From positions 51,027 to 115,026 of the IMG/VR virus record IMGVR_UViG_3300030514_000035: DNA of 64,000 nt; one strand, given 5' to 3'. Both the position numbers and the translations under genes were made by a program. Every line of letters starts with the position of its first letter. Position 1 is the stretch's first letter. This DNA comes from a virus. The notes below the pieces were generated by a model that saw only the letters and a program-made list of their open reading frames with translations, had not been told where the DNA came from and did no database searches. Positions 1,464 to 51,459 of this stretch are shown here, piece after piece.

Positions 1464-1724
1464 GTGAACGTAAAAGTTGTAGGAAGAAACAATGTGATTA
1501 AGGTAGGAGATATCATTGAGTATGAGAAGTCTTCGCATAGACCTCATCCATTCTATATGGTATGTGAATCAGAAGCAGATGGATTCTTTGTAATGAGTCT
1601 CACAGGTAAGAAGGGTCAAATGAAATTCTATAGTTCATTAAGATATCTTCAAGCATGCTTAAGAGGAGTTAAAGAGATTTACTCAAGTAAAGAGTGGCAA
1701 TTGAAAATCGATAGAACAAACTAA
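1464..1724 (+). CDS. hypothetical small beta-rich protein
   Basis: ORF track; aaggagg RBS. Confidence 0.7.
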   Translation: MNVKVVGRNNVIKVGDIIEYEKSSHRPHPFYMVCESEADGFFVMSLTGKKGQMKFYSSLRYLQACLRGVKEIYSSKEWQLKIDRTN

Positions 1725-1757
1725 AGCAAAAGTATTGACAATATAGGAGGAATTATC

Positions 1758-2240
1758 ATGAGTGCAAAAACAGGTTTGGATTTAGTAGTAGAAGTATTTG
1801 GTGAAGAATTGGCAGAAGAGATTATGGACTTACGTGACATTGAATATATCTCAGGAGTAACAGAATGGAGCACTGACTTTCTAAACGAGGATGGCTGGTA
1901 TTACTACTCTAAAGCAACATTTGTATACAAGAATAAGAAGTATGAGTTTGAATATAGAACTCATTCATCAGACAATGTTTGCGACTCAGATTCAGATGTC
2001 AATACATTCAAGGAGATTCCAAGAGACCTTTGGATTGTAGTAGCAGTAAAGCCACATTATCCAAGCGTACATCATTTTCATAGCGAGGAAGAGGCTAGAG
2101 ACTATTACAAGCATGCAAAAGATAATGGATTCGTAGTTCATATCGCTAAGGTAGAAGAGTATCATTATGATGATGAGTGCCATGGGTATGGACAAGAAAG
2201 AGAAGATGATATTAAGACATGGGATGTGTACTGGTCATAA
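1758..2240 (+). CDS. hypothetical phage protein (160 aa)
   Basis: ORF track; aggagg RBS. Confidence 0.75.
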   Translation: MSAKTGLDLVVEVFGEELAEEIMDLRDIEYISGVTEWSTDFLNEDGWYYYSKATFVYKNKKYEFEYRTHSSDNVCDSDSDVNTFKEIPRDLWIVVAVKPHYPSVHHFHSEEEARDYYKHAKDNGFVVHIAKVEEYHYDDECHGYGQEREDDIKTWDVYWS

Positions 2241-2262
2241 AATGTATTTAAGGAGAATTCTA

Positions 2263-2463
2263 ATGGAAATCAGAAAAGAAGTAAAGACCTATCAAGTAAG
2301 CTATAAATGTCCTGAATGTGGAGAAGGGGAGTTAAAGGCTAATGGCATGATGAAGCCTTCTAACCCACCTTATTATGGGCATACATGCACTAATAGAGAG
2401 TGTAGACATAAAGAGTATATCTTTGGTGCAACATACCCTAGAATCGAAACAGAGGAAGTATGA
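2263..2463 (+). CDS. small zinc-ribbon protein
   Basis: CPEC...CTNREC; start moved to ATG 2263 (RBS aaggag). Confidence 0.65.
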   Translation: MEIRKEVKTYQVSYKCPECGEGELKANGMMKPSNPPYYGHTCTNRECRHKEYIFGATYPRIETEEV

Positions 2464-2552
2464 TGACAAAGTTCTTTGTATTCATGGTAGCACTTATCCT
2501 TGCGATGATGTTCTATCTAGCAATCTTTAATCTAGCACATTTAACTATTTAG
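2460..2552 (+). CDS. 30-aa hydrophobic peptide
   Basis: MMTKFFVFMVALILAMMFYLAIFNLAHLTI; overlaps upstream stop and fills the gap before the next RBS; not in ORF track. Confidence 0.5.
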   Translation: MMTKFFVFMVALILAMMFYLAIFNLAHLTI

Positions 2553-2563
2553 GAGGAATTGTA

Positions 2564-2800
2564 GTGAGTGAAATTACTGTACAACTTAAGAACATCAGTG
2601 GCGAGGTAGTAGATGAGAAACATATTGTGGTTCGTGAAGGAGATACTTTGGTTATGCAATTCCCTGACGAGATGCGTATTGACCATGCTCATTCCGTATA
2701 CAAAACCCTGCTGAACGCATTAGAGAATCCTACTACTGGATTGATCGGTATTCCTGATACAATCAGCTTTCAAGTTCTTAGTATTAAACAAAAGTATTGA
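2564..2800 (+). CDS. hypothetical phage protein
   Basis: ORF track; aggagg RBS. Confidence 0.7.
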   Translation: MSEITVQLKNISGEVVDEKHIVVREGDTLVMQFPDEMRIDHAHSVYKTLLNALENPTTGLIGIPDTISFQVLSIKQKY

Positions 2801-2826
2801 CAATATAATAGGATAACTGGTATTAT
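2797..2826 (+). promoter_or_regulatory. sigmaA-type promoter for the DNA polymerase operon
   Basis: TTGACA-18-TATTAT with TG extension; -35 is the 3' end of the repeated motif. Confidence 0.7.
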
Positions 2827-2862
2827 ATTAATATCAGTTATCTGAAAGAGGGGAAATCAACT

Positions 2863-5800
2863 TTGACTAAAACAGTAGTAAGAACAATTCCATATAATAC
2901 TTTAAGTTCTAAGTATTATTACACAGCAATTCATCTACACACAGACCTGTCAAATCAGAACATGGTTGAGGTAGTCAATACTTATAAACAGTACATTGAC
3001 CAAGCTGTAGAATATGGCATGAAGGCTATTGCATTCACTGAGCATGGTAATATTCTAAGTTGGTACAATAAGAAGACATATGCTGAATCTAAAGGACTTA
3101 AGTACATTCATGGTTGTGAAGTTTATGTAACTATGACACTTGAAGAGAAGAAGCGTGACAACTTCCACATGGTTCTTCTAGCTAAGAACTTTGAGGGATT
3201 CAAAGAAATCAATAAGATGGTATCAACAGCATTTGAGCGAAAGGGTAATAACTATTACTATAACCCTCGTATTAGCTGGGAAGATATCAAGAATACATCT
3301 GACAATGTTATCATTTCTACTGCTTGTCTTGGTGGTATCATTTGGCAACTACACAAGAATAGAGCGCAAAGTGCAAACTCTGCAAACAAGTTAATTGAAG
3401 TTATTAAATGGTTTGCTGAGAATCAACATCGTGCATTCTTAGAAATCCAGCCACATTATCACATCGAGCAAATTCAATACAACAAACTTCTTAAGCAAAT
3501 AAGCGAAGAAACTGGCGTTAGATTAGTTGCTGGTTCAGATACTCATGCCTTAAATCAAGAGTATGACGAGGCACGTAAGGTACTTCAGAAGGCTAAGAAA
3601 ATCAAGTTCACAGATGAAGATAGCTTCGACTTAACATTCCATTCATACGACAAGATGTTTGAAATGTTCCAGCGACAAGACATTTTCACAGATGAAGAGA
3701 TTCACGAGGCAATGCAAATGACCAACGTTATTGCAGATATGGTTGAGCCTTGGGAAATTGATTATAGCAAGAAGTATCCACAATTATACGATGATCCTGA
3801 GCGTGTATTCCAAGAGAAGATTTCTGAAGGAATTAAGTATCGTGGAATTGACAAGCTACCTGATGAAGAGAAGAAGAAGTACGCAGATAGAATTGCACAT
3901 GAGTATGAAGTATACAAAGCAAACGATGCTATTAACTATATGTTACTTGAGGATGATGTTAAATCACACGCTCGTAAAGAGAAGGTGCGATATGGCTGGG
4001 GTCGTGGTTCAGCTTCAGGAAGTATCATTGCATATCTGATGCGAATTACTCAGATGAACAGTATTGATAGAAACCTTAACTTTGCACGTTTCATGTCAAA
4101 AGAGCGTATCAGTCTTGCCGACATCGATACAGACTATGAACCTAGCAAGCGACACATTATCCAAGACTATGTAATTAACCATCCTAAGCTGAGTTCAGCT
4201 AAGATTATCACTTATAACAAGCTTGAGAAGCTAAGTGCTATTCGTGATATTGGTCGAGGGCTTAACATGCCATTAAATGAAGTGGATGATATTGCTAAAG
4301 GCGTAGAGGAGAATGAAGGATACTGGAGAGATAGATATCCTGAGTTATTCAAATATGTTGACCTAGTTAAAGGTGTAGTAGTTTCTGTAGGAGCACACGC
4401 ATGCGGTATAGCCGTATCACCTATTCCATTAGATGAACATATGGGATTAATCACTGTAATTGATAATAAGACTAAAGAACCTGTAACATTAACGCAGATT
4501 AACATGAAAGAGATTGACGCACAAAACTTTGTTAAACTTGACCTACTTGGCTTAGACACAGTCGAAGTTTTAAGTCAGACAGTTGACTTTGCTGGATTGA
4601 AGTGGGAGGATGTATTCCCTGAAAATCTAGACTCAGAAGATGAAAAGGTATGGGAGAGTATCTTAGAAAGCAATATTGGCATCTTCCAATATGAATCTGA
4701 CTTTGCTCATCAAATCTACAAGGACTTATTCAGTAGAGAGACCATTTGGAAGATTAGACAGAAGCATCCTAACTTCTCATACATGGACTTATTCTCGCTA
4801 GGTAATGCGATCCTTCGACCTTCAGGTGCATCATATCGTGACTCTGTAGTACAGGGCGAGTTTTATGATAATGGGCATAAGGCACTGAATGAATTCCTTG
4901 CACCAACTTTAGGTAGACTAGTATATCAAGAGGATATCATTAACTTCTTAACTAAGTTCTGTGGGTACTCAGGCGGTGAGGCTGACGTTGTTAGACGAGC
5001 CATTGGGAAGAAGCAGAAGGAAGTATTAGAGAAAGTCTTACCTGAAATCAAAGAGAGATTCATTGATACAATGGTATCTAAATATGAAACTCGAAATGTG
5101 TTAGCTGAGGAAATCTCAGAACCATTCATCAAGGTAATCATTGATAGTTCTGATTATGGCTTCTCTATCAATCACTCTGATGCTTATAGCTGGTTAGGTT
5201 ATACTTGTGCATACCTACGCTATTACTATCCATTAGAGTTCCTTACAGCCAATTTAAACGTTAATATCAATAAGCAGGAGAAGACAACTAAACTAGTTGA
5301 ATATGCTAAGTCTAAGGGCGTTTCATTGAACAGCATTAAGTTCAGATATTCTCGTGCTGGCTACATGTTTGATAAGGAAACAAACTCTATTTACCAAGGC
5401 ATTCAGCCTATTAAATTCCTAAATGCTAACGTAGCAGAAGGGCTATATGACTTGCGTCACAAGGAGTACAATAGCTTTGTAGAGTTGCTATTGGATATCA
5501 AAGAAGGTCATGTTCTATCCGTGGACGGAAACAATATGACTATGAAGGAACTTCTTGAGAATGAAGAAGAATATAAAACAAAAGTATTGACGCAGTTAGA
5601 GAAGGATGGTAAAATTGAAATTGTTGGATTGGGCGGTGTACCAATCAACGCAAAACAAATGAAAATCTTAATCATGCTTAACTACTTCAGCGAGTTCGGG
5701 AATAACAAGAAGCTTCTAGAAGTATTCGAATACTTTGAGAAGACATATAGCCCTAAACATAAGCTGAAAACTAAAAGAGAACGTTGGGCAAAAGTATTGA

Positions 5801-6183
5801 TATTTGAACAAGAGGAAGAGAATGAGTCACTTTCATTAGTAGACCAATGTACTGCAGAACTTGAATTCCTAGGTCACATTGAAACTGTAAGTGATTCAGC
5901 GCCAGCGAACTACATGATTCTAACTGAAGTTAAGGCAATGAAAACTTTAACTAGAGCAAGGGCTTATCAGTTCTGCACAGGGGAGATTAGAGAGTTTAAA
6001 ATGGGTGCTACTTTATACAGACAAGTTCCATTTGAAGAGATGGATGTAATCGAAATTAAGAGCGCTGAAATCAAACCTAAGAGCAAGAAGATTGATGGTA
6101 GATGGCAACCTTCTCCTACAGAGAAAGAAGCATGGCTGAAGGATATTAAGTTCATTCGTAGAGGCTCTATAGCAGAAGATTAA
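2863..6183 (+). CDS. dnaE: DNA polymerase III alpha subunit (family C, PHP domain)
   Basis: HLHTD...AFTEHG PHP motifs, GRGSASGS, LADIDTD, VGAHACG, KLDLLGL, YGFSINHS. Confidence 0.95.
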   Translation: MTKTVVRTIPYNTLSSKYYYTAIHLHTDLSNQNMVEVVNTYKQYIDQAVEYGMKAIAFTEHGNILSWYNKKTYAESKGLKYIHGCEVYVTMTLEEKKRDNFHMVLLAKNFEGFKEINKMVSTAFERKGNNYYYNPRISWEDIKNTSDNVIISTACLGGIIWQLHKNRAQSANSANKLIEVIKWFAENQHRAFLEIQPHYHIEQIQYNKLLKQISEETGVRLVAGSDTHALNQEYDEARKVLQKAKKIKFTDEDSFDLTFHSYDKMFEMFQRQDIFTDEEIHEAMQMTNVIADMVEPWEIDYSKKYPQLYDDPERVFQEKISEGIKYRGIDKLPDEEKKKYADRIAHEYEVYKANDAINYMLLEDDVKSHARKEKVRYGWGRGSASGSIIAYLMRITQMNSIDRNLNFARFMSKERISLADIDTDYEPSKRHIIQDYVINHPKLSSAKIITYNKLEKLSAIRDIGRGLNMPLNEVDDIAKGVEENEGYWRDRYPELFKYVDLVKGVVVSVGAHACGIAVSPIPLDEHMGLITVIDNKTKEPVTLTQINMKEIDAQNFVKLDLLGLDTVEVLSQTVDFAGLKWEDVFPENLDSEDEKVWESILESNIGIFQYESDFAHQIYKDLFSRETIWKIRQKHPNFSYMDLFSLGNAILRPSGASYRDSVVQGEFYDNGHKALNEFLAPTLGRLVYQEDIINFLTKFCGYSGGEADVVRRAIGKKQKEVLEKVLPEIKERFIDTMVSKYETRNVLAEEISEPFIKVIIDSSDYGFSINHSDAYSWLGYTCAYLRYYYPLEFLTANLNVNINKQEKTTKLVEYAKSKGVSLNSIKFRYSRAGYMFDKETNSIYQGIQPIKFLNANVAEGLYDLRHKEYNSFVELLLDIKEGHVLSVDGNNMTMKELLENEEEYKTKVLTQLEKDGKIEIVGLGGVPINAKQMKILIMLNYFSEFGNNKKLLEVFEYFEKTYSPKHKLKTKRERWAKVLIFEQEEENESLSLVDQCTAELEFLGHIETVSDSAPANYMILTEVKAMKTLTRARAYQFCTGEIREFKMGATLYRQVPFEEMDVIEIKSAEIKPKSKKIDGRWQPSPTEKEAWLKDIKFIRRGSIAED

Positions 6184-6528: not shown

Positions 6529-6570
6529 TAACTATATTAAGCAAAAGTATTGATAATAAGGAGAGATTAC

Positions 6571-9262: not shown

Positions 9263-9265
9263 TTA

Positions 9266-9274
9266 TGATATAAT
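9266..9274 (+). promoter_or_regulatory. extended -10 promoter of the type I toxin
   Basis: TGATATAAT about 60 nt upstream of the toxin ATG. Confidence 0.5.
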
Positions 9275-9333
9275 GGAATAAGTTGCAAAGCAGGGTGCGG
9301 TGGCACTTCCCGATAGAAGGGAGGTGTTCTCAG

Positions 9334-9587: not shown

Positions 9588-9605
9588 ATATTTTAAGGAT
9601 AAGTA

Positions 9606-9635
9606 TTGACGTTTACTATACTAGTGTGTTAGTAT
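9606..9635 (+). promoter_or_regulatory. sigmaA-type promoter
   Basis: TTGACG-18-TAGTAT with TG; preceded by partial motif aagta. Confidence 0.5.
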
Positions 9636-11374: not shown

Positions 11375-11421
11375 ATCTATATCGGTCTTAAACAAAAGTA
11401 TTAACAAATGGAGGAATAAAG

Positions 11422-11688
11422 ATGAATAATTACACAAAGAAAATGGTAGCAATGGACAAAGAGCAAGCAGGATTCTTATTAACAATGGTATTAGCAGATA
11501 TGCTTGAACATCAAGAAGTAGGCGTTGTTGAGCGCACGTTTAAAAACCCTCAACATATGGCAAAAGTTCTTAAGGCTGTTGGTGAAGTAAGCTACGATCA
11601 TTTATCAAAAGAAGAACAAGATGAGAAAGTTGCAGGAGTTCTACGTCAGCTTATTTACGCATTCGATTCTTCTTTACTAACTAAGTAA
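11422..11688 (+). CDS. hypothetical phage protein
   Basis: ORF track; ggagg RBS. Confidence 0.7.
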   Translation: MNNYTKKMVAMDKEQAGFLLTMVLADMLEHQEVGVVERTFKNPQHMAKVLKAVGEVSYDHLSKEEQDEKVAGVLRQLIYAFDSSLLTK

Positions 11689-11719
11689 AACAAAAGTATT
11701 GACAATAGGAGGTAACAAG

Positions 11720-14394: not shown

Positions 14395-14416
14395 CAAATT
14401 ATATTAAACAAAAGTA

Positions 14417-14445
14417 TTGATATTTAAATTTGTGTGTGATATAAT
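14417..14445 (+). promoter_or_regulatory. sigmaA-type promoter of the nrd operon
   Basis: TTGATA-17-TATAAT with TG; -35 lies within a motif copy. Confidence 0.75.
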
Positions 14446-14519
14446 TGAATTTATAGTCGTCTTAATATTTTCGATTATATCACTAAGCAAAAGTATTGAT
14501 ATAAAACAGAGGTGAGTGT

Positions 14520-16993: not shown

Positions 16994-17006
16994 TTAAACA
17001 AAAGTA

Positions 17007-17035
17007 TTGATATTAGTATATAAATATGTTATCAT
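17007..17035 (+). promoter_or_regulatory. sigmaA-type promoter between nrdE and nrdF
   Basis: TTGATA-17-TATCAT with TG; -35 lies within a motif copy. Confidence 0.6.
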
Positions 17036-17100
17036 GGTAAGAGAGTGTTCGGGAATACCTAACTCTCTTACTAAACAAAAGTATTGATGGAGGAATTACA

Positions 17101-18776: not shown

Positions 18777-18829
18777 TTTAAAACTATATTAAACAAAAGT
18801 ATTGACACAGAATGGAGATAAATGATATC

Positions 18830-19566: not shown

Positions 19567-19584
19567 TACCCTTAAACAAAAGTA

Positions 19585-19613
19585 TTGACGTAATAATATA
19601 CGAGTGATATACT
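19585..19613 (+). promoter_or_regulatory. sigmaA-type promoter
   Basis: TTGACG-17-TATACT with TG; -35 lies within a motif copy. Confidence 0.7.
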
Positions 19614-19644: not shown

Positions 19645-20673
19645 ATGAATAACCTAAGTAACGAAAGTCGAGTAATGCTTTTCACACACAACGATTTAGA
19701 TGGCATTGGATGCGAGATTGTAGGGAAATTAGCCTTTGATAATATCGAAGTTAAGAATACACGTAATCCTCAAGATGCAAGCAATGAAGTAGAAGCGTTC
19801 ATCAATGCTGGACGACACAAGAGTTTTGACGCAATCTTTATCACAGATATCTCAGTTACTGAGCGAGTTGCTGATATGATTGACGACTTAGATGCAAATG
19901 AAATGTTTAAGTTCTATCTTCTAGACCATCATAAAACAGCAGGAGACCTAAACAAGCGTGTATGGGCAGAGGTTGAAGTAAATGGAGTCATTGGATTAAA
20001 CTCAGGAACAAACATGTTCTATGAATATCTTCGTCACGAAGGATTCTTCAAAACAGAAATCTATCGAGATGCAATTCAAGTATTTGTTGAAAAGGTTCGC
20101 AGATATGATTGTTGGGAATGGAAGACAAGATACGATGACCTAGAAGCAGGAGCGTTAAATCAACTGTTTTGGTTGCTAGGGCGTAACGTGTTTACATCTA
20201 AGATGATTCGTAAATTCAAGGCAAATCAATTCTTTAGTGTGAGTGAAGGTTCATGGCTAGAAATGTTCGATAGTGTTGATCGTGCAATCATAGACATTGA
20301 TAATCACAAGAAAGAACTATACGTTAAGATGAAAGAGCGTCAAATGAAGACAACTGAATTCTTAGGCAATCAAGTAGGAGTAGTGTTCGCAGAGCAATAT
20401 ATCTCTGAATTAGGAAATGAGTTATCTGAACGCAACCCACACTTAAAATACATCATGCTTATTGATATGGGTGGTAACAAAGTGTCTCTACGCACAATTC
20501 ACGATGACATTAACCTAGGCACAGAAGTTGCTAAGCGATTTGGTGGCGGTGGTCACGCAAAAGCTTCAGGATTTGTATTCGATGAATCAGTAGTAAAACA
20601 CTCAGTTAACTTAATCACAGAAGTTGGAATCGTTTCAAAATTACGAAAATTTGTTGACAAGTTTTCTAAATAA
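19645..20673 (+). CDS. DHH/DHHA1 phosphoesterase (NrnB-like nanoRNase)
   Basis: THNDLDG, TDIS, LDHH, SLR, GGGGHAKASG. Confidence 0.88.
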   Translation: MNNLSNESRVMLFTHNDLDGIGCEIVGKLAFDNIEVKNTRNPQDASNEVEAFINAGRHKSFDAIFITDISVTERVADMIDDLDANEMFKFYLLDHHKTAGDLNKRVWAEVEVNGVIGLNSGTNMFYEYLRHEGFFKTEIYRDAIQVFVEKVRRYDCWEWKTRYDDLEAGALNQLFWLLGRNVFTSKMIRKFKANQFFSVSEGSWLEMFDSVDRAIIDIDNHKKELYVKMKERQMKTTEFLGNQVGVVFAEQYISELGNELSERNPHLKYIMLIDMGGNKVSLRTIHDDINLGTEVAKRFGGGGHAKASGFVFDESVVKHSVNLITEVGIVSKLRKFVDKFSK

Positions 20674-20682
20674 TAGTATAAT
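20654..20682 (+). promoter_or_regulatory. sigmaA-type promoter
   Basis: TTGACA-17-TATATT. Confidence 0.6.
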
Positions 20683-20785
20683 TAATGGTGAGGTAGGAAG
20701 TACCTAACTTTTTATCTTACCATTAAGCAAAAGTATTGACATGGTGAGAGTGAGGTGAAGAGACACTAAATAAAGGAGAATTAAC

Positions 20786-23365: not shown

Positions 23366-23457
23366 GGGAATTCATTAAGGGTTGTTTTATTGGGTTTGGA
23401 TTATCACTTATATTATGGGCATTAATTATTATGGGATTTATTATTAAGACAAATTAA
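23362..23457 (+). CDS. 31-aa membrane peptide
   Basis: MREFIKGCFIGFGLSLILWALIIMGFIIKTN; ATGA overlap with the upstream stop. Confidence 0.55.
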   Translation: MREFIKGCFIGFGLSLILWALIIMGFIIKTN

Positions 23458-23486
23458 AACAAAAGTATTAACAAAGGAGAATTAAT

Positions 23487-23747: not shown

Positions 23748-23749
23748 TT

Positions 23750-30683: not shown

Positions 30684-30705
30684 AAGGAGAGGTTTCCCTC
30701 TCCTT
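30684..30705. terminator. stem-loop between endolysin and amidase
   Basis: aaggagagg-tttc-cctctcctt. Confidence 0.5.
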
Positions 30706-30724
30706 GTTAATACTTTTTCTTTAA

Positions 30725-32416: not shown

Positions 32417-32451
32417 ATATATCACCTCACATTGTCAATACTTTTGCTCAA

Positions 32452-34486: not shown

Positions 34487-34496
34487 CTTTTGTCAC

Positions 34497-35192: not shown

Positions 35193-35248
35193 CCTTCCTT
35201 ACCATCAATACTTTTGGTTAGTGCTACAATTAATTAACTCTATAACCA

Positions 35249-35277
35249 ATTATAGCACCGCACCAAGTTGATGTCAA
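35249..35277 (-). promoter_or_regulatory. consensus sigmaA promoter inside the tail module
   Basis: Minus strand TTGACA-17-TATAAT with TG. Confidence 0.8.
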
Positions 35278-35302
35278 CTGTTTTAATAATTTTGTTTAAA
35301 GA

Positions 35303-37378: not shown

Positions 37379-38324
37379 TTACAACAGCCCCATTCTCGTT
37401 AAACGTTGTTTTTCTTTCAAATGCAGTAGTTGAAAGCAAGTCAGTCTTTGTCATAGCATCGAAGGTGATTTCACCAATCTCTGTGTAGTCAAATTGCAGA
37501 CTAGCCAATGGGCGAAGTAAATCCCCTTCTTTATGAGTTTGCGTAACATTATGTGTTACAATTAACATCAGGACACCATTGTCCATTCTTAATACTTTTG
37601 CTTTACCATTGTTTAAGAAGTCAACCCATTCCTGTCTGTTAACCTGTTCTGCAAACTTGTCAATCCCACCGCCAGCAAGAGCAATGGTCTCTCTAGATAA
37701 TGGTAGAACACTTAAGCTACCACTTCTATACTTACTCTGACCGAATGTTACGATTGGATATCCACTATTGATTGGCTGATTCAATGCTGAGTTTGTATTA
37801 TAAACAACTTCACCCATAGTGATATCAAACTCTAGTCTTCTATTTTCTTTTCTGTCAGTTATGAAGATACCTTCATATGAAGATTCAATTGGTTGAGAAA
37901 CTGTCTTTTCACCAAGTACTTCATTAGCAACAGGGACGATCGCATATTGATACATGATTCCATTTTGAGTATATCTATCAACATAATCATAAACATTGTA
38001 ATCTTCATCGTATTCAAAGATACCAATTGCATCCCATTTACTTGTGCCATAAACTGAACGATAGAGCATGATATGCGTAACCTTAAAGCCATCCATACCT
38101 ATAGAACCAGCATCTAAGTCACTTGTAAACTTAGCATCCATAATCGTAGTGAATCCCCATGATGTAGGTTTAACGTTGTCATCTACGATATTTTTACTTA
38201 AGTCGATATAAGCTTCATCATATGTCCCTTCATTTAACTGAAGTTCATCCAGCATATCTGTACATATTGGCGTGTCAAAGACTGCGCCTTCTTCTAAACC
38301 AAAGAAATTGTAATCAATTATCAC
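37371..38324 (-). CDS. baseplate / distal tail protein
   Basis: Position after the tape measure; FN3-like YDYVDRY...YQYAIVPV. Confidence 0.65.
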   Translation of the reverse strand: MIIDYNFFGLEEGAVFDTPICTDMLDELQLNEGTYDEAYIDLSKNIVDDNVKPTSWGFTTIMDAKFTSDLDAGSIGMDGFKVTHIMLYRSVYGTSKWDAIGIFEYDEDYNVYDYVDRYTQNGIMYQYAIVPVANEVLGEKTVSQPIESSYEGIFITDRKENRRLEFDITMGEVVYNTNSALNQPINSGYPIVTFGQSKYRSGSLSVLPLSRETIALAGGGIDKFAEQVNRQEWVDFLNNGKAKVLRMDNGVLMLIVTHNVTQTHKEGDLLRPLASLQFDYTEIGEITFDAMTKTDLLSTTAFERKTTFNENGAVVSG

Positions 38325-38337
38325 TTTATCACCTCTC

Positions 38338-39426: not shown

Positions 39427-39484
39427 CTCGTTTTATATCAATAATTTTGCTTAAGGAGATTCATAAGAATCCCCTTAAGACTTA

Positions 39485-45400: not shown

Positions 45401-47746
45401 CTGTGCTCTCATATTACCAAAGTTTAGCGATATGGTCTTAATAGCAGTACCAATACGCTCACCGCCCATTCGAGTCGCTTCTTGCGCACCAGTAATCATA
45501 CCAGTTAAGTCATTGAATGATACTCCAGCATCCTTTGCAGTCCCTGCGGAACGCATGTATGCCTTACCTAACTCTTCCATTTCAATGGCGTTTTGGTTAG
45601 AGGTTTCATTCATTACGTTGATAACATCATTGGCTTCTAAGCCCTCTTTTTTAAATGCTTCCATAGGAATCGACATATATTTAACCATGTCGTCAGGACT
45701 GATATTACCTACGAAACTACCAACTAGAGATGTCTTTGCTAAGGCTTGAGAGTCTGTAAAGTTCTTACCAGCAGTTACCCACTTCTCTACAGCCATCATG
45801 TATTGGTCTGCAGTTACACCAAGCTGAGCGCCTGTGTCATAAGAAGTATCTTTAAACTTCTTCATGGTTTCTGAACCCATGTCAGCAACCTTGTTTACTT
45901 TCGTAAACGCCTCATCAACAAGTAATGAGTTCTTAAGAATCTCTCTGAATCCTTGTTCAAATCCAGCATATGTGCTATATGGATCAACCACACCGCCAGT
46001 ATTGCTAAAGCTTCTATCCTTATCCTTTGCATCTTGACGCAATCTGCTAAGACGAAGTTCTTCACTTTGCGCTTGTTTAATAGCGTTAATCTCTTCTCTT
46101 CTACTTGCAGTTAATTGCTTAGATGATGAGATTTCTCTTTCTAAAACACTAGCCTTTTCTCTTTCAGCACTTAACGCTCTTTCAATTACACCTGACTCAC
46201 GGACTCCTGAGAATTGAAGGTCACGCTGTAGTTGATTGATTCTTCTTAGACTATCTTCATAAGCCTTCATTTTAGAGTTGAAAGCATCTTGCTGAGCGTT
46301 GTTTTTAGCTACAGCTTGAACACGTTCCATATCTGTTTGATGAAGTCTTTCCATATAGCCAAGTTGTTCACGCAACTTATTACTTACAAGTCCTTGAGCC
46401 TCAGCATTGGTTCTGTTCTCATTTTGAATCTGCTTTGCAATTGCTAATGCTTTTTGTAGATTCTGTAGATTAGTATAGTCTCCCTCTTTAGAAGAGCCTC
46501 TAGATTGAATCTCATGAATCTTAAGTTGTAAGCTTTGAATCTCTTTTAAGTCTCGCTTCATTTGAGAAGCGTATTCTCTTTCAGCTTGACTTAGTCTCTG
46601 AGTAGCTTCAGCATCTGCTTTCTTAGCTTGAGCCTTTTCAACTTGCAACATTGCACTAGTTCTAATAGCATCAAGTTCTTCTCTTTGAGAAGCAGTCATT
46701 TTCTGAGTCAGATTATTGCTCTCACTAATCTTGGCTTGAATCTTATCATGATAGCCATACTCTTCTCTAAGAGCATTTAACTCATTGCCCTTGGCGTTAA
46801 CCATCTGAACAGCAAGTTGACTTTTCTTAGCTTCGAGTTGTGCTACTCTAGAAACAGCATTAGCAATTTCTTTCTCTTCGTTCGAGACTTCCTTGGCATA
46901 CATAGCTTGGTCTTTTAGACTTGCAACCAATTGTTGCGATCGCACAAGCGCCTGTGTGCTACCCTCGTCCATAGAGTTAGCCTTGTATTTAAGTTGATAC
47001 TCCTCTTGCAACATTGCTAACTGTTGCTTATGGATACCTAACTCTTTATTCATTAATGCAGTACTTTCTTTATCAGCAGACTTCATGCTCATTTCAAGTT
47101 GATGAATACGCTTAAGAGTATCTTCAATTTCTTTTAGAGCCTTCTCCTGATTAAGTGTTTCTGTTATGTCAATCATTCCATTTGGTTTCTGAGTAACAGT
47201 TCTAGAAACATCAGCGCCATCATTGTAAGTTGACTTAATGGTATTGGCATAACTACCATCTGCCATCTGTTTGCTAATTCGTTGAAGCTTAGCGACTTTC
47301 TCCATATTAGCGTCAATCAATTTACCTTGGTCTCTGTAGGCTTGTTGTGTCTTCCTAGCACTCGCATCCTGAAGCTTGTCAATATTCTTCATGTCTTGAA
47401 GGACATCTTTGAAAGCCTGATCCATATCCAAGCCAGCAACTTTAATCTTTAACTCACGATTCTTACTAAGTTCATGGTCAAGTTTTCTTAGTTCTGTTTG
47501 AAACTTATTGACAGCCTTGAAAGCCTCTGACATATCCGCAGACAACTTAATCTCTACAGCATTATCACTTAAGGCTTTTTTAATTTTGGCTCTCATTGAA
47601 GCCAAGCTTCGTTCATCTACGTCAACATTAACTTTTGCAGTGAAGTTCTTCTTAACAGAAGCCCACTTCTTAGCTAACTCTGCCTGTAGTTCACCGACAG
47701 TCTGAAACTCTACTTGTACTTCAATACCTATCTTATTACTTGGCAC
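39485..47746 (-). CDS. tape measure protein (2753 aa)
   Basis: Long helical/coiled-coil composition; TP901-like core (NETSNQNA...ELG.A..RS...A...GVSF..L..MITG..EATRMGGERIGTAIKTI); position in the tail module. Confidence 0.88.
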   Translation of the reverse strand: MPSNKIGIEVQVEFQTVGELQAELAKKWASVKKNFTAKVNVDVDERSLASMRAKIKKALSDNAVEIKLSADMSEAFKAVNKFQTELRKLDHELSKNRELKIKVAGLDMDQAFKDVLQDMKNIDKLQDASARKTQQAYRDQGKLIDANMEKVAKLQRISKQMADGSYANTIKSTYNDGADVSRTVTQKPNGMIDITETLNQEKALKEIEDTLKRIHQLEMSMKSADKESTALMNKELGIHKQQLAMLQEEYQLKYKANSMDEGSTQALVRSQQLVASLKDQAMYAKEVSNEEKEIANAVSRVAQLEAKKSQLAVQMVNAKGNELNALREEYGYHDKIQAKISESNNLTQKMTASQREELDAIRTSAMLQVEKAQAKKADAEATQRLSQAEREYASQMKRDLKEIQSLQLKIHEIQSRGSSKEGDYTNLQNLQKALAIAKQIQNENRTNAEAQGLVSNKLREQLGYMERLHQTDMERVQAVAKNNAQQDAFNSKMKAYEDSLRRINQLQRDLQFSGVRESGVIERALSAEREKASVLEREISSSKQLTASRREEINAIKQAQSEELRLSRLRQDAKDKDRSFSNTGGVVDPYSTYAGFEQGFREILKNSLLVDEAFTKVNKVADMGSETMKKFKDTSYDTGAQLGVTADQYMMAVEKWVTAGKNFTDSQALAKTSLVGSFVGNISPDDMVKYMSIPMEAFKKEGLEANDVINVMNETSNQNAIEMEELGKAYMRSAGTAKDAGVSFNDLTGMITGAQEATRMGGERIGTAIKTISLNFGNMRAQMTAGEKRKFNFFKDTLGIDLSEAKSMTDVVGQLAEKWDDMSVEERSTAKFYLAGKEHSNVLQGIIDQWDKVEQASKTAQNQMGQGIKGSAYKEFEVQQDSVRFKLAKLQNAWLEFTNKIGENGGILSKVMGALTDGLQVATDLMNNPAFMNVAKWLAIAVAIKAITNAGKRMTDVLTSGFRDYVARVTGAVNALKNLKKGTDDVNTSSRRLIDTNRDIARASQESARIQQASARETARVQQSGASAMIKAGKIQAGSQAKAPAVLKAPSTPEVRTVVYKANTEAVKKAQAEVTAGNKPVIRSVTWKADTRMVKKAQAEVTAGNKPVVRTLVYKADASAVRKAQGEVVRTNQAVAQSASATVTKTGLVKGAIKGLAGMIPIVGDALIMMEMMGIPVFETIGKGFKGLVNSADEARKAFEKTASEFEKSNAIINGSLDKNKAKLDGWQKQLANAKGSDLGQMGHEEFAKFQSDVNNTAKDLGLKIRLDINDTGEIQKVLDAIKNKLNGVKEVSTQKIAIQVGDSLSQIESLKNSLQQLKDQRDKLKNKESLLKDLLGEMDKNPAMKMSQDYRDLQGQLESTQSKLKGVNSDIKEQTSNLNETKSAMDGYVQSALAQGASFDSGNLKLSERKTLLDQMRQGQETLNDAVANGNLASKQFAESGTLTKTNWGMVKDLIPEIDSAFGTWSANEINHSKEAQNACKEIIQAYVEKGQMSAEAGQKAIDALSKEISKDEEAKKKKKEKGDAGKKAGNDSKAGSDKAKQGSDAEAQADEKAKKKKDEKGKAGKKSGNDSKAGSDKAKQGADQEASAHDKAGKKAQDKGKKGKQAGNDSKAGSDNAKRGADAEAKAHEQAGKKAQESGKKGKQAGNDSASGSKTSAQASGQAKSAHEKTGKAASEMGKKGKQAGNDTATGMNNGKRGADNAKKGLDGASSSARTLSKDAKDAGNKVKDIPSHKESKFTFKVFGIDLMDKVKSFFSGSYSKSGSISITKTEKTVKKDKSVSAKGISSNSISSANGIPVRGISSLATSANGTVKDNATSTTSTTPPAKVSEDVWRYWNKEDAVSKLDDAIKDLTRTLQWVGDDQSAQKKLYEQMIPLLRQQMTAYRSLQGAKDSEMNSTLNSLKKYGFNVNTSTNTISNLDHAKSLSGTKAEEAEKLLNTYHSLSSELITIGNNMSDITTQIFDTQEKIKKNNIAIELEKYDAVIKRIDALLTKVNNSDSIFAKRLEFIGSNDSELALITNEQAMAQAKGNMSSLISQFNSLSKATIGYEENGTALKASLDKLSTEILAQADAIVKYEQAINELEISRVTNDLNEFGTAVDSNVNKLKNNVTNLKDGLLSGTDFGDLASSKSTGLELGRNNIYEAVQKERINLEVEMQQALDAFAKKNIDRVKGVSNAELDITATKYNSMLKMQKDYTAGQTASYSQIVKTFDELAGVGKLDNSYTFITKLDNAFDALQAKQDKMKTQYEKDLASAKSQEAKDAVTNKFIINNMKLQEEYLQKSIQANNDAIAEYKNQLKDSTLTDDQFNKINTQIDTLEKENLDSQNAIKASVKERFDFEFSLLSEAMSKYDQYATDLTYAQNLISALGGDNFKAKGLVMDQMLDVEKARNKQLDTTLDSLNKQLSSYEEGSYEWNMINAQVTEYNKLLQASNLQLIEMNKNILKNSFDNTMNKVQKEMFDGKTIEDFKAYHDLWVTGLERELALEKMYGRIADLGTKNFDEKMALLDKQEKMSRYEMDYMNKQLDLIELQQKLENLSNERTVQTLKQNADGTWDWQYTANQGEIDKAQEELDNKQLEMETAQQQAREDYSTKLEAILTKAENGQYDSAEDFQSAINDLTEAYDSIVGDFPKIKDEYIKSLIDSYSEYIKENGDVINGNIPSTATPIYEGFSTELVKAFNDISKDIGETFANALISKLPNFGKATESSTSSKSVSINLDKVEFPNATDKDSIQEAILSLPQIALQKSKEKL
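42640..43190 (-). repeat. 117-bp (39-aa) tandem repeat x5 in the tape measure
   Basis: GNDS/GNDT codons recur at 42680, 42797, 42914, 43031, 43148. Confidence 0.9.
44365..44583 (-). repeat. 81-bp (27-aa) tandem repeat x~3 in the tape measure
   Basis: R(T/S)V.(Y/W)KA....VKKAQAEVTAGNKPV; anchors at 44447 and 44528. Confidence 0.85.
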
Positions 47747-47778
47747 TTACGCTAACACCACCTTGTTAATACTTTTGC

Positions 47779-48825
47779 TTAATCTTGTTTGTTTTTATTC
47801 TTTAATTGCTTAAGTTTCTCACGAATCTCAGCCTTCGATTTCGGTTTAACATAGTGCTTCTGAGTTGTAGAAATATCACTATGGTTCGCCATTTCCTGAG
47901 CCAGTGTTAAATCTCCTGTCTCATCTACAATCTTGTTAATTGCAGTTTTACGTAAGCAGTGAGGATGTAAGTCAGGCAATCCTAGGATCGTACCCATCTT
48001 TCTAACACGCATGTAAATTGAAGTCTGAGACATCTTATGATAAACACCATTTCTTTTAGCGACAAAAATTGCGTCACATTCAAGATTGTCCATCTCCTTA
48101 CGCATTTCTCTCCACTTGATTAACAAGTCTCTAGTTGATTCCTCAAAAGCGACCTCAACCATCTTTCCACGTTTCTCTCTGATATCTACGAACATCATGC
48201 TTTCTAAATCTAAAGAAGACCATGTCAGCTTAGAAATAGCACCATTTCTGTTTGCAGATTCAATAGCGATATGCCAAATCAGTAAGTCTTGAATATCAAA
48301 CTTTCTACCTTTTGGCTTTTCGTAATCCTCATGCATTACACGAGTGATGATGTCGATTTGCTCTTGATTTAAGAAGTAGTGATTAATGAGTTTTTCATCA
48401 TTAGCACCTTTCATTCTTTCAAGCTTTCTATCAAATGGATGAATATCTACTGGAACACCCTTACGTTGTACAGCCCAATGGAAGTAACTAGATACAGCAG
48501 ATAACTTTGTGTTAATTACCTTCTTGTTATTTCCAAGTTCATCTTGTAAGAATCCAATGTATCCTTCCATGATTTCAACAGCATTTTCTAAGTACTCTTC
48601 ATCATGAATGCTGATGTTCTCCCACTCTTCCATTAGGTATACCAAGAACTGATTGAAGTAGTTTTGGTAAACTTTATAAGTAGTTTCTTTAACATCTCTA
48701 TTCTTGATAATTCTTGATTTCAAATACTTGTCATAAGACTTAACGCTTTCTTCGTTAACTTTAGCAAGCTTATCTTTAGTAAAATAGCGTTTATACTGAC
48801 GCTTTTGTTCTGCCACTTTCTTCAC
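47779..48825 (-). CDS. tyrosine recombinase (XerC/D-like) in the tail module
   Basis: ANRNG (Arg), K, HPHCLRK (HxxR), ANHSDISTTQKHY (His, Tyr). Confidence 0.88.
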   Translation of the reverse strand: MKKVAEQKRQYKRYFTKDKLAKVNEESVKSYDKYLKSRIIKNRDVKETTYKVYQNYFNQFLVYLMEEWENISIHDEEYLENAVEIMEGYIGFLQDELGNNKKVINTKLSAVSSYFHWAVQRKGVPVDIHPFDRKLERMKGANDEKLINHYFLNQEQIDIITRVMHEDYEKPKGRKFDIQDLLIWHIAIESANRNGAISKLTWSSLDLESMMFVDIREKRGKMVEVAFEESTRDLLIKWREMRKEMDNLECDAIFVAKRNGVYHKMSQTSIYMRVRKMGTILGLPDLHPHCLRKTAINKIVDETGDLTLAQEMANHSDISTTQKHYVKPKSKAEIREKLKQLKNKNKQD

Positions 48826-48862
48826 CTCTTATGGTTTATTAGCCACAAGAAGCCTCCTTAAA

Positions 48863-49363
48863 TTACACAGATACCACATTCCAACCTTGACTTCTTAGTG
48901 AACTAGCCAATGCTACAGCTAGTTCTCCACCACTTAAATCAAAGTAAGCATCCTCCATATAATGAGCGCCCTCACGATCAAATAATGAACCACTTGTTCC
49001 TTCTTCAACCCATAGTGGAATGTATTCACTAACATCTATACTAAACGCATCTGCGTGAGCATTCCATCCACCATAGCCATGTGTTCCATTTCTTATCTGA
49101 GGGTTGATTTTCCCTGTATCCATGTAAATCTCAAATGTTGCATATTTATATCCAATACTGAGATTTCCTATAGTTACACTATTCAACAGGTCAAATGTTC
49201 TATCGTAGGCTTCATCCCCTTGAGGGATATAAGCCTCGTATACATTCTTGCGAATATACTCTTGAACAACATCCATGCAGATTGCTGTTACCTTGGTTTC
49301 AATTGCAGTCATGATAGAACTTTTAAGGTGTCCTTGGAGTGCAGAGACAGTTTTAAATCTCAT
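48863..49363 (-). CDS. tail completion / morphogenesis protein (putative)
   Basis: Position; RTFDLLNSV pattern. Confidence 0.55.
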   Translation of the reverse strand: MRFKTVSALQGHLKSSIMTAIETKVTAICMDVVQEYIRKNVYEAYIPQGDEAYDRTFDLLNSVTIGNLSIGYKYATFEIYMDTGKINPQIRNGTHGYGGWNAHADAFSIDVSEYIPLWVEEGTSGSLFDREGAHYMEDAYFDLSGGELAVALASSLRSQGWNVVSV

Positions 49364-50049
49364 TATTTATCAAACTCATCCTTAGTTACACGCTGACTAA
49401 TTTCCCCTGCAGTAACTGTAATTTGAGCCTCTGCTGTTTTTACTCTACTAGCTAAGTCTGCAATATCACTTGCGTTAGCCTTTAGATTGATAACCTCTTC
49501 AACCTTTTCAGCAAGTTCTTCTTGACTGTTTGCGTTCTCTACTGCTTCATCTAATTCTCTTGAAGCTTCATCTACTTTGCGTACAAACTCGTGATCCCCA
49601 TTGCGCATAGCCTGTTCTACCATTAATGTTGGAATTTGAGAGATTAACTCAGCTTGAGATAATACACTTTCTGCACTTGCGATTTCTGTTTTGATTTTTT
49701 CAGCGTATAACTTGTTTACATCTGAGATGATTTGAGCAATCATGTTCTGAGCGATTAACAAATGAACAGATGGATTGTCAATAATTTTGCTTAATTCTTC
49801 GTCTGAAACGTCTGAAAAATCGATGTTTGTTAACAATGGGAAGAAATGTTTCACTACTGTAATTGCATCAAATACTACTGTGGCATCTTCTCCGAAGTCT
49901 ACACCCTCTTGTCGTTGGATATCAATTAGAGCGTCTGCCACTTCTAGTGTAGGCTCGTAAATCTCAATCTTTCCTGTTGGCGTATTAATGTAATCTCGTA
50001 CCTTCTTTTCTTCTTTAGGTACTGTTAAATTTGAAATGTGAATTGCCAA
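49363..50049 (-). CDS. putative tail assembly chaperone with a C-terminal fibre-type repeat
   Basis: Position upstream of the tape measure; ends RVKTAEAQITVTAGEISQRVTKDEFDK. Confidence 0.55.
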   Translation of the reverse strand: MAIHISNLTVPKEEKKVRDYINTPTGKIEIYEPTLEVADALIDIQRQEGVDFGEDATVVFDAITVVKHFFPLLTNIDFSDVSDEELSKIIDNPSVHLLIAQNMIAQIISDVNKLYAEKIKTEIASAESVLSQAELISQIPTLMVEQAMRNGDHEFVRKVDEASRELDEAVENANSQEELAEKVEEVINLKANASDIADLASRVKTAEAQITVTAGEISQRVTKDEFDK

Positions 50050-50104
50050 TTTGCTTCACTCCTTATTATTTGTCAATACTTTTGCTTAATATTGCCTTAT
50101 TATT

Positions 50105-50133
50105 ATAATAACAGAATGAGAGATAGATGTCAA
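50105..50133 (-). promoter_or_regulatory. sigmaA promoter whose -35 is the loop of a hairpin
   Basis: Minus strand TTGACA-17-TATTAT with TG. Confidence 0.65.
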
Positions 50134-50146
50134 TATCTATCTCTCA
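50117..50146 (-). terminator. perfect 12-bp stem-loop downstream of the holin
   Basis: tgagagatagat-gtcaat-atctatctctca. Confidence 0.6.
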
Positions 50147-50176
50147 ACTTTTTAATAAAATCTGAGTTTTATTAAA

Positions 50177-50704
50177 TTATTGTTTCTTGTCAGTCTCGAA
50201 CTTTCCATCTTTATTCAACTTCGCTTCATCTCCACCTTTGCCTTGAAATACAGCAAGGCGATCGATTATAGCTTGTGGAATTGGAACACCCATTTGCGCC
50301 AAGTTTTCAAGTACACTACTTCCTTCAACAAAAATGTAGAACCAAACAGCAATAGTACGTAGGATTGGAGCGTCTTCGGGCATAAGTTTATCAAACTGTG
50401 TTGCAAGTACGATTACGATAAAGTAGCCAAATTTTGTAGCAAAACCTTGTCGCATTCTCTTACTTGAGAATTCCTTTGTGTGAATACCTTTAATAATTCC
50501 TGTTAGCATATCTAAGACAACACATGTGATAAACACTTGGAAGGCTGTGTCCCAACCTCCAAACAACGCTGTTAACCCTGTCATACCGCCTGTAAATAAC
50601 AGAGGCAAGCTGTCTAAATGTTCTTGCTTAAAATAGCTGAATAGTACTTTCAATGGTGACACCCTTTCATTATGAATTTGCGTCATAATGATTTCCAGTG
50701 TCAT
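50177..50704 (-). CDS. holin (toxin-secretion/phage lysis holin family)
   Basis: LFGGWD....F...VVLDMLTG, SS..MRQG..K, FY...EG.S.LENL...GVPIP. Confidence 0.88.
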   Translation of the reverse strand: MTLEIIMTQIHNERVSPLKVLFSYFKQEHLDSLPLLFTGGMTGLTALFGGWDTAFQVFITCVVLDMLTGIIKGIHTKEFSSKRMRQGFATKFGYFIVIVLATQFDKLMPEDAPILRTIAVWFYIFVEGSSVLENLAQMGVPIPQAIIDRLAVFQGKGGDEAKLNKDGKFETDKKQ

Positions 50705-50724
50705 CCAATTCCCTTAACTCTCTG

Positions 50725-50753
50725 ATTATACCATATATCTATATTTATATCAA
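50725..50753 (-). promoter_or_regulatory. sigmaA promoter of the holin; -35 within a motif copy
   Basis: Minus strand TTGATA-17-TATAAT. Confidence 0.7.
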
Positions 50754-50773
50754 TACTTTTGTTCAATATATTT

Positions 50774-51394
50774 TTACACAGTAGTATCAGGAGTTTCTGT
50801 AGGAATTCCTTCTTCAATGGGAGTTTCGTCTACTGGAGTTTCAACATTTTCTTCTGAATTATTTTCTTCAGGAATAGTTTCCTCTTCTGTCGGAGTTTCT
50901 TCAACATCTTCTTCTTTTCCAATATTAAGAACCTCCTCATGTGAAGTAGCATCCATAACTGCTTTCTTAAGCATGTCATACTTAAAGATAAGAGCCTCTT
51001 TGTTCTGCATGCATTCATAAAACACCTTAATCCACTCTTCTCTAGTATGGTCAACGAACCCTGCGTCCTCCGTCTTCCACTTAACAATCTGTGCGTCAGG
51101 ATGATCGTTAAGGTATTCTTTTCTTCCTAGCATGTTTGTTTGGTCATCACGATTTGTTCTGTATATATGACCATTTGAAGCAGTGATACCTTCAAGTATT
51201 TTCTCTTCACATTCTTCTCTTAACTGTTCAGTTCTAAGGTTCTTATGATAGTCTAGAATATACTCTTCTGTTATTTGCTCCATAGGCACTCCCTCATTAC
51301 TAGCAAGATAAACGATGATATTATTCTTTTCATAGATAGAGAGGGCATCAAAGCCCTTCTCCACTATTAATTTATCCAATGGATTTGTAATCAC
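50774..51394 (-). CDS. tail-fibre-associated protein (DUF4376-like) with an acidic tail
   Basis: Follows the fibre gene; LREECEEKILEG...YRTNRDDQTNM...WKTED pattern. Confidence 0.55.
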   Translation of the reverse strand: MITNPLDKLIVEKGFDALSIYEKNNIIVYLASNEGVPMEQITEEYILDYHKNLRTEQLREECEEKILEGITASNGHIYRTNRDDQTNMLGRKEYLNDHPDAQIVKWKTEDAGFVDHTREEWIKVFYECMQNKEALIFKYDMLKKAVMDATSHEEVLNIGKEEDVEETPTEEETIPEENNSEENVETPVDETPIEEGIPTETPDTTV

Positions 51395-51417
51395 TTATTC
51401 ATTCTCCCTTCTTTTTC

Positions 51418-51446
51418 ATTTTACATCAAATGTTATTCTATATCAA
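51418..51446 (-). promoter_or_regulatory. sigmaA promoter; -35 within a motif copy
   Basis: Minus strand TTGATA-17-TAAAAT. Confidence 0.6.
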
Positions 51447-51459
51447 TACTTTTGCTTAA

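Follow-up and report, generated by a model that had tools for sequence, protein, structure and literature searches.

MrpR of phage SPbeta binds an oriented repeated element (SPBRE), detected as ten peaks at promoter regions by chromatin affinity precipitation sequencing (ChAP-seq) and described by a 15-bp motif (PMC10516654). SroF of phage phi3T is a monomeric clamp on a 26-bp asymmetric box (PDB 9rd5) and is released by the SOS-controlled antirepressor Sar (bioRxiv 10.1101/2025.11.27.690993). In mycobacteriophage L5 and other Cluster A phages, gp71 recognizes the stoperators, dozens of asymmetric sites with a -35-like hexamer (PMC9283540, PMC6550527). Here we analyse a repeated motif in bases 51027-115026 (64,000 nucleotides, the window; coordinates are those of the window unless marked 'genome') of the 145,395-bp IMG/VR phage record IMGVR_UViG_3300030514_000035, which CheckV rates as complete. 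The motif is a conserved block of about 19-20 bp, ttAArCAAAAGTATTGAyA, and judging from sequence and by analogy with phi3T it is probably the repeated operator of a monomeric clamp repressor of the SroF/MrpR family that the phage itself encodes.

An exact scan of the window with the core CAAAAGTATT gives 22 copies, 15 on the + strand (core starts 1727 to 23460) and 7 on the - strand (32437 to 51445), against a mean of 0.41 and a maximum of 3 in dinucleotide-preserving shuffles. A sequence-only reading of the window had listed the same 22 copies, its coordinates, 2-4 nt lower, marking the start of the longer motif, and had roughly estimated about 0.5 chance copies. Across the whole genome there are 61 exact matches (40 forward, 21 reverse), and the reversed control word never occurs. 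A position-weight profile built from these 61 copies finds 75 sites at a cut-off of 10 bits (about one is expected in Markov-simulated sequence), a density of about one site per 2 kb. Fifteen additional copies, six of them in the window (Table 1), are degenerate, and all are oriented with their arm. The sequence-only reading had also held that the copies point along local transcription and switch strand where the genes do. This is so for all 22 copies in the window and for 72 of the 75 profile sites; the three that oppose their arm lie at genome 644, 11255 and 25862, the second followed by a small leftward open reading frame (ORF) of 36 aa with a strong ribosome-binding site (RBS). Since an exhaustive scan for anti-oriented copies yields so few, the observation is strengthened. 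The copies change strand where the two gene arms converge, and the GC skew reverses its sign there, near 28-32 kb. A motif-free stretch of 7.2 kb at this junction (23473-30705) carries accessory genes, including a DndB-like operon with an XRE regulator and the gene of a LysM-CAP protein, together with most of the terminator-like hairpins; both arms are almost devoid of intrinsic terminators.

The last six bases of the motif, TTGACA or TTGATA, are a sigmaA -35 hexamer, and the block has no internal pairing. Its exact copies fall into three classes. In class I, about 20 of the 61, a TATAAT-like -10 box follows 16-18 bp past the hexamer, giving near-consensus sigmaA promoters. The six window copies that had been proposed to supply a -35 box all have -10-like hexamers at 17-18 bp (by core start: 2789, TATTAT; 14409, TATAAT; 16999, TATCAT; 19577, TATACT; 50752, TATAAT; 51445, TAAAAT). 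In class II, about 19 of the 61, there is no -10 box and a Shine-Dalgarno sequence and start codon follow within 0-10 nt; the earlier remark that some copies sit 10-25 nt 5' of a start codon is likewise correct. The remaining exact copies (class III) lie in longer leaders, often directly 5' of a stable hairpin, and a few are intragenic. Around two-thirds of the copies thus have no -10 at any sensible spacing, and the distance from motif to RBS ranges from 0 to more than 100 nt. About 95% are outside coding sequence and tied to gene starts and -10 boxes; long ORFs on the same strand contain only four exact copies, and the DnaE-like polymerase gene accounts for two of these, both in its 3' part. 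The motif heads early units, late units and the unit of a sigma-like gene alike.

Class I copies are often paired, with a second copy 73-111 nt downstream and just 5' of the RBS. Leaders bounded by paired copies have significant structure (median z about -3), with a hairpin that extends exactly to the second copy. The genome also contains strong sigmaA-like promoters that lack the motif. Those in the window each have a copy at most about 80 nt further on (20654 to 20723, 35277 to 35203, 39512 to 39436 and 50133 to 50071), and all strong gene-co-oriented promoter-like sites of the window are either fused to the motif or followed by a copy within about 80 nt. Around the -35 of one such motif-less promoter (50133-50105) is centred a palindrome with a 13-bp stem (50117-50146), which may be the operator of another, dimeric regulator.

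Relatives were found by scanning IMG/VR with an 18-base pattern, whose matches were mostly single chance hits, only multi-match records proving to be related, and then by a search with the repressor protein. With the present phage as G000, at least five further records carry the same core: G001 (a 26-kb fragment) with 13 copies, G002 (126 kb) with 37, G003 (137 kb) with 33, G004 (133 kb) with 54 and G006 (127 kb) with 32. All five share the two-arm polarity of the motif, and 207 of 217 exact copies in five genomes are co-oriented with local coding. The genomes are well diverged: only 30-40% of this genome can be aligned with G002-G004 (identity about 68-70%), and most of 65 shared proteins have 40-80% identity. 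Where a gene here has a site, 69 of 118 orthologues also have one, compared with 26 of 170 where the gene here has none. Entire site pairs are kept at orthologous genes at similar distances from the start codon, and in aligned orthologous intergenic DNA the motif copies, RBS-proximal second copies included, stand as invariant islands in diverged sequence. Both copies of the pair 14404/14483 are kept in G003 and G004, and in G002 and G006 the first (promoter) copy has decayed while the second is intact. The islands and this case of a lost first copy argue that promoter copies and RBS-proximal copies are both under selection. The motif is absent from the five nearest named phages by DnaE (pCD1602_4, PK-3, Thrax1, FADO and vB_BcoS-136; 39-43% identity). 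The stem of paired-copy leaders shows compensatory changes between genomes (GTGGTATAAT ... ATTATACCAC in G003) and lies partly upstream of the expected start site; in the leader at 14420-14485 the 5' arm of the hairpin includes the -10 box (GTGATATAAT ... ATTATATCAC).

The hexamer 3' of the core varies with the phage: TTGAYA in this genome, TTGAAA in G003, TTGCAA in G004 and G001, TTGCAG in G002 and G006. TTG is always kept, and each phage retains its own form across all three classes, including copies without a -10. This argues for a phage-encoded reader whose site overlaps the -35, and not for sigmaA or a host factor alone.

A candidate for this reader lies outside the window. Searches with SPbeta proteins (tblastn) place an MrpR (YopR) homologue about 22 kb ahead of the window, at genome 27870-29183, and likewise find a YopP-like recombinase outside it (genome 25935-26975); they detect no arbitrium genes, AimR included. 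The MrpR-like protein scores 66.4 bits on the Pfam family MrpR_N_CB (cut-off 27) and matches PDB entries 9rd5, 8a0a and 8bjv by sequence (E 1e-10 to 4e-9). Its AlphaFold model, of moderate confidence (predicted local distance difference test 67), has 9rd5, 9rgl, 8bpz and 8a0a as best fold matches; these top folds are DNA-bound SroF, SroF-Sar, YopR and MrpR, and Cre, the Tn1549 integrase and Xer rank behind. The protein has an extra N-terminal region of about 120 aa. Pfam Phage_integrase gives no score on it and does score on the YopP-like and YomM-like recombinases. Every complete motif phage encodes the MrpR-like protein, and these proteins form one clade (support 100/99); it is not detected in the five related motif-less phages named above; homologues of the other candidates occur there in 5/5 (YomM-like), 4/5 (YopP-like) and 1/5 (sigma-like). 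Phages that have only distant MrpR-like proteins (23-28% identity) lack this core. Directly 5' of the repressor gene, the promoter contains a weakened motif copy with one core mismatch, as expected for autoregulation. One of the phages with a distant MrpR-like protein, G009 (IMGVR_UViG_3300033802_000252; 149 kb), has a strand-biased repeat of its own around TATCGATATAT, with ATCGATATAT found 14 times forward and never in reverse.

The sequence-only reading had one protein control replication, tail and lysis genes together. Its core, an oriented array for a sequence-specific protein, is the part best supported; its pointer to SPbeta MrpR was apt, since an MrpR/SroF-family protein is encoded in the same genome, and among the binders it offered, a repressor outside the window is the one that fits. 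The binders it named inside the window are disfavoured. XRE 26756 and DGQHR/DndB 25114 both belong to the motif-free accessory operon, and the putative winged helix-turn-helix protein at 19153 (a 154-aa protein, 19102-19566) matches no Pfam family and only a PHROG of unknown function. The tyrosine recombinase at 47779 is rejected as binder: it keeps R...K...HxxR...H...Y and has homologues in all five motif-less phages. With only a weak tblastn match to SPbeta YomM, this YomM-like protein is 76-81% conserved, the second most conserved protein of the group, and from its sequence looks like an active enzyme rather than a repressor. YomM-like homologues occur in all related large siphoviruses tested.

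For comparison with SPBRE, we derived a consensus from seven MrpR-bound upstream regions of the SPbeta record, approximately tAGACAAAtAcAAAwAATATGTATAtAAt, all copies of which are oriented with the genes. The two elements are not the same. The SPBRE core AAAAAATATGTAT occurs only twice in this genome with at most one mismatch, the present core occurs once per strand in SPbeta, and neither genome has the other's element above chance; the match to SPBRE that had been put forward for comparison is thus lacking, and the element is new in sequence. The likeness is one of design. Both are asymmetric oriented repeats that form part of sigmaA-type promoters or directly precede an RBS: in SPbeta yorE, yonP, yorZ and others SPBRE spans a TAGACA, 17 nt, TATAAT promoter, and at yopM and yopV it stands right 5' of the RBS. 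Site pairs lie about 65-80 bp apart in both phages (64-68 bp at yonX and yosX), and in the present genome too an MrpR-family gene stands beside that of a YopP-like recombinase. SPBRE, however, covers the -35, the spacer and the -10, whereas the motif here reaches no further than the -35 and otherwise covers only sequence upstream of it. In SPbeta there are about 13 copies, which occupy the early region and, in one case, the sequence 5' of yonO, the gene of the RNA polymerase that transcribes the SPbeta late genes; here 61-75 sites extend over both arms, including tail and lysis genes, no YonO polymerase is encoded, and the repressor carries its extra N-terminal region.

In the comparison with phi3T, 9rd5 is the best match of the candidate repressor in both sequence and fold, and a long oriented site would be explained by a monomeric clamp that contacts about 24 bp of an asymmetric box rich in A-tracts. 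The boxes themselves differ, sharing only an ATTAAG plus A-tract stretch on one strand that may be chance. SOS control through LexA in phi3T has a counterpart here in a conserved double LexA box, in and past a promoter at genome 34640-35001, an arrangement kept in G002, G003 and G006. The motif copy is the -35 of this promoter in G002 and G006, and a degenerate copy adjoins it in G000 and G003. In these four phages a gene of 79-81 aa follows the boxes (80 aa here). The profile of the 80-aa protein matches no solved chain and its sequence does not match Sar, a difference from phi3T; the LexA-controlled gene is a candidate for an SOS-induced antirepressor.

The array also resembles the stoperators of L5 and Cluster A, where likewise the early promoter has one site over its -35 and the short gaps between genes in both arms hold many more, pointing along transcription, and where the repressor is monomeric, as would be the one here by analogy with SroF. 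The folds are unrelated, helix-turn-helix domains in gp71 and an integrase-like clamp here; the sites are 13 bp there and 19-24 bp here, the host phylum differs, and the elongation block shown for L5 is for the present phage a proposal. The start-associated sequences of Cluster K mycobacteriophages are conserved asymmetric words a few bases 5' of many start codons and, like the motif here, co-oriented with the genes; unlike it, they contain the RBS and do not serve as promoter -35 elements, and they are not known to be linked to a repressor. Systems of the kind proposed here are known (SPBRE/MrpR in 2023, SroF-DNA in 2025). New features are the sequence and the lineage, how dense and far-reaching the array is, its fusion to promoters at the -35 and upstream part instead of the spacer and -10, and the conserved leader composed of a site pair and a hairpin.

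We infer that the MrpR-like protein binds the motif and that binding represses. One monomer would clamp one asymmetric site of about 20-24 bp, as SroF does in phi3T, which would account for the length of the site, its lack of a palindrome and its orientation. Initiation would be prevented at class I copies, where the bound clamp would hide the -35 together with the contact region upstream of it. Where the copies lie between promoter and RBS or between cistrons (classes II and III), it would serve as a second lock against read-through, resembling the mycobacteriophage stoperators, in arms that are nearly free of terminators. In the prophage, the array would in this way keep the genes for replication, structure and lysis silent on both arms and leave the motif-less accessory operons free of repression. 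With no YonO-type polymerase, late genes would need direct silencing, and the array accordingly would have to reach the tail and lysis genes. Whether the two-thirds of copies away from promoters are true stoperators, at which an integrase-fold clamp halts the elongating host polymerase in one direction, is a more tentative matter, and we consider it possible but doubtful. If they are, the phage would have a genome-wide transcription lock, in a Bacillus-type phage-plasmid and evolved independently of the actinophage system, in place of the indirect late-gene control inferred for SPbeta through its own YonO polymerase. A bolder version would have the same word act in the RNA leader as well.

Several observations weigh against the clamp repressor as reader. 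Among the motif phages the MrpR-like proteins share only 38-49% identity, yet 16 motif bases are invariant, and the presumed DNA-reading helices of these proteins, compared by eye, are not clearly more conserved than the protein average. Because the co-occurrence of repressor and motif was counted among related genomes, it does not amount to a set of independent cases. In Bacillus sp. OV166, an MrpR-like gene nested in the motif clade lies in the chromosome with no motif nearby, which means that family membership alone does not predict the motif. Finally, two-thirds of the copies lie off promoters; many directly precede an RBS or stable hairpin, and several are transcribed as part of the leader that follows a motif-less promoter. 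These positions fit a role at the RNA level equally well. That the OV166 gene belongs to a prophage of the same family is rejected, since only 2 of 190 proteins match in 160 kb and the motif is absent nearby; one other homologue of this phage is found near the orphan gene (region 3.27-3.43 Mb), which may be a captured repressor that confers immunity to such phages.

A different reading of the fused -35 is that the motif specifies promoters, as an extended -35 or upstream box read by the host polymerase together with a phage sigma-like protein or an activator. The motif does contain the hexamer, and the genome encodes a 350-aa sigma-like protein (genome 140063-141115) that matches PHROG 5767 'sigma factor' and has a weak, sub-threshold C-terminal match to a sigma-region-4/GerE helix-turn-helix. 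On this reading, copies without a -10 would be unconventional start sites whose short leaders are protected by the RBS or a 5' hairpin, and class II and III copies do have an RBS or a stable hairpin directly after them, which is what an RNA 5' end would lead one to expect. However, the class I promoters are near consensus for sigmaA and need no helper, two-thirds of the copies have no -10 at a sensible spacing, and some class II start sites would fall 0-5 nt from the RBS. Conservation of the sigma-like protein is only 40-49%, the motif-less pCD1602_4 encodes a homologue of it, and a motif found at early, late and sigma-like gene units cannot define a temporal class. We regard promoter specificity as unlikely.

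The word could instead function in RNA, in leaders and intercistronic spacers, as the cleavage site of a host or phage endoribonuclease or as a site bound by a translational regulator; that it overlaps promoters would then be secondary. The strict co-orientation with transcription, the many copies 0-10 nt 5' of an RBS, the motif-less promoters with a copy in the leader, and the structured leaders whose hairpin ends at the second copy are all compatible with this, as is one copy 13 nt 5' of a Pistol ribozyme. Against it, about one-third of the copies precede the start site that they serve, spaced exactly as a -35 is from a -10, and the copies at the divergent arm heads (genome 142890 on - and 143149 on +), with no upstream co-directional transcription, cannot be sense RNA. 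The variable RBS distance, the lack of internal pairing and the phage-specific 3' part that keeps a -35-like TTG in all classes also count against it, and we give the weakened RNA-level alternative little chance.

UP elements are upstream DNA contacted by the C-terminal domain of the RNA polymerase alpha subunit, and the A-rich tract of the motif adjoins its TTGACA-like hexamer at just this contact position, as would suit a plain UP-element and -35 module for the host sigmaA polymerase, or the site of a host factor, spread by duplication. Yet each phage keeps its own hexamer, even the sub-optimal TTGCAA or TTGCAG and also in copies without a -10; the copies are preserved rather than decaying (61 exact versus 15 degenerate), strong motif-less sigmaA promoters exist in the same genome, and the core is at background in the 7.1-Mb genome of OV166 (68 copies versus 56 of the reversed control). 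The arm-wise flip in orientation, shared with the GC skew, could also denote a polar DNA signal for translocation, packaging or segregation (KOPS- or Chi-like), and the two encoded tyrosine recombinases, active-looking and with integrase domains, could use the motif as half-sites. But a signal for translocation has no need of copies that are about 95% non-coding and tied to gene starts and -10s, YomM-/YopP-like homologues occur in motif-less relatives, and no inverted pairs with a crossover spacer were seen. Each of these two explanations fits fewer facts, and we hold both to be very improbable. Promoters of a phage RNA polymerase, T7-like or YonO-type, are rejected, as tblastn gives no YonO match, there is no DxDGD-type candidate and the PHROG and Pfam matches of the large proteins include no such enzyme.

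Table 1. Motif copies and associated features of the window, in window coordinates.
Feature	Position	Strand	Details
Motif copy, class II	1722..1740	+	17 nt 5' of ATG of ORF 1758-2240
Motif copy, class I	2784..2802	+	TTGACA, 18 nt, TATTAT; heads DnaE-like polymerase gene 2863-6183
Motif copy in DnaE-like gene	5574..5592	+	TTGACG, 17 nt, TAAAAT (possible internal promoter); orthologous position kept in G004
Second motif copy in DnaE-like gene	5784..5802	+	Orthologous position kept in G004
Motif copy, class II	6537..6555	+	15 nt 5' of ATG of 6571-7161 (nucleoside 2-deoxyribosyltransferase-like)
Degenerate copy, leader type	9593..9611	+	2 core mismatches; co-oriented
Motif copy, class II	11388..11406	+	Hexamer relaxed to TTAACA; 5' of ORF 11422-11688
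Motif copy, class II	11686..11704	+	5' of ORF 11720-12079
Pair, first copy, class I	14404..14422	+	TTGATA, 17 nt, TATAAT
Pair, second copy	14483..14501	+	79 nt downstream, past structured leader; 18 nt to start of 14520-14921
Pair, first copy, class I	16994..17012	+	TTGATA, 17 nt, TATCAT
Pair, second copy	17071..17089	+	77 nt downstream, past hairpin; 11 nt to start of 17101-17652
Motif copy, class II	18789..18807	+	22 nt 5' of ATG of 18830-19096
Motif copy, class I	19572..19590	+	TTGACG, 17 nt, TATACT; heads 19645-20673
Motif-less consensus sigmaA-like promoter (12/12)	20654..20682	+	Copy 20723 begins 41 nt later
Leader copy	20723..20741	+	Between motif-less promoter and RBS of 20786-20950
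Motif copy, class II (TTAACA)	23455..23473	+	Last copy on + arm; motif-free 7.2-kb zone next
Degenerate copy, 1 mismatch	30705..30723	-	First copy on - arm
Motif copy, class II	32433..32451	-	5' of ORF 31784-32416
Motif copy, class II	35203..35221	-	10 nt 5' of ATG of 34497-35192; downstream of promoter 35277-35249
Degenerate copy	35281..35299	-	Abuts 12/12 promoter 35277-35249
Intragenic copy, ORF 37371-38324	37587..37605	-	Core in same codons of G003 and G004
Degenerate copy, class II, 1 mismatch	39436..39454	-	5' of 38338-39420; downstream of promoter 39512-39484
Motif copy, class II	47764..47782	-	17 nt 5' of 2753-aa tape-measure gene 39485-47746
YomM-like tyrosine recombinase gene	47779..48825	-	Catalytic residues look intact; directly upstream of tape-measure gene
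Degenerate copy, 1 mismatch	49776..49794	-	Inside ORF 49363-50049
Motif copy, class II	50071..50089	-	5' of 49363-50049; downstream of motif-less promoter 50133-50105
Motif copy, class I	50748..50766	-	TTGATA, 17 nt, TATAAT
Motif copy, class I	51441..51459	-	TTGATA, 17 nt, TAAAAT
Degenerate copy, 1 mismatch	62221..62239	-	Inside 3048-aa structural gene

If the motif is indeed the operator of the MrpR-like clamp, it would form the densest known site array for an integrase-shaped repressor, covering early, structural and lysis genes. The six related genomes are a natural series in which the core is fixed and the 3' part varies, useful for how SroF/MrpR clamps read DNA and for the question of whether such clamps block elongation as the mycobacteriophage stoperators do. 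For large Bacillus-type phage-plasmids it would furnish an annotation rule: presence of the motif would mark lytic transcription units, and its absence accessory genes likely expressed from the prophage.

Several features suggest that the phage is temperate and probably plasmid-like. An actin-like partition gene is encoded, and a CI-type helix-turn-helix gene lies at genome 29785-30159 on the opposite strand; the double LexA box and the weakened motif copy 5' of the repressor gene point the same way. Relatives are present as separate contigs in the isolate assemblies of IMG records 2529292751, 2648501629 and 2645728005. The Pistol self-cleaving ribozyme (genome 13378-13441; 68.9 bits, gathering score 34.5) begins 13 nt past the motif copy at genome 13352 and lies just 5' of the gene for a 459-aa acidic protein. 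Within the ORF-poor region at genome 9.8-13.5 kb it is the only Rfam match, even at a relaxed threshold. About 2.5 kb of this region (genome 9900-12446) has no credible ORFs; motif-fused promoters at genome 11718 and 11929 lead into non-coding sequence, and the anti-oriented copy at genome 11255 also lies here, so that large non-coding RNAs or an origin region are possible. In the window, an ORF-free gap at 9259-9404 gives a borderline Rfam match to the Listeria small RNA rli28 (46.6 bits; gathering score 45). The point where the arms diverge (genome ~142700-143130) has five or six palindromic iterons GAGACGAT..CGTCTC between DnaD-like initiator genes, as well as two direct repeats of about 70 bp, and is a probable replication origin or control region.

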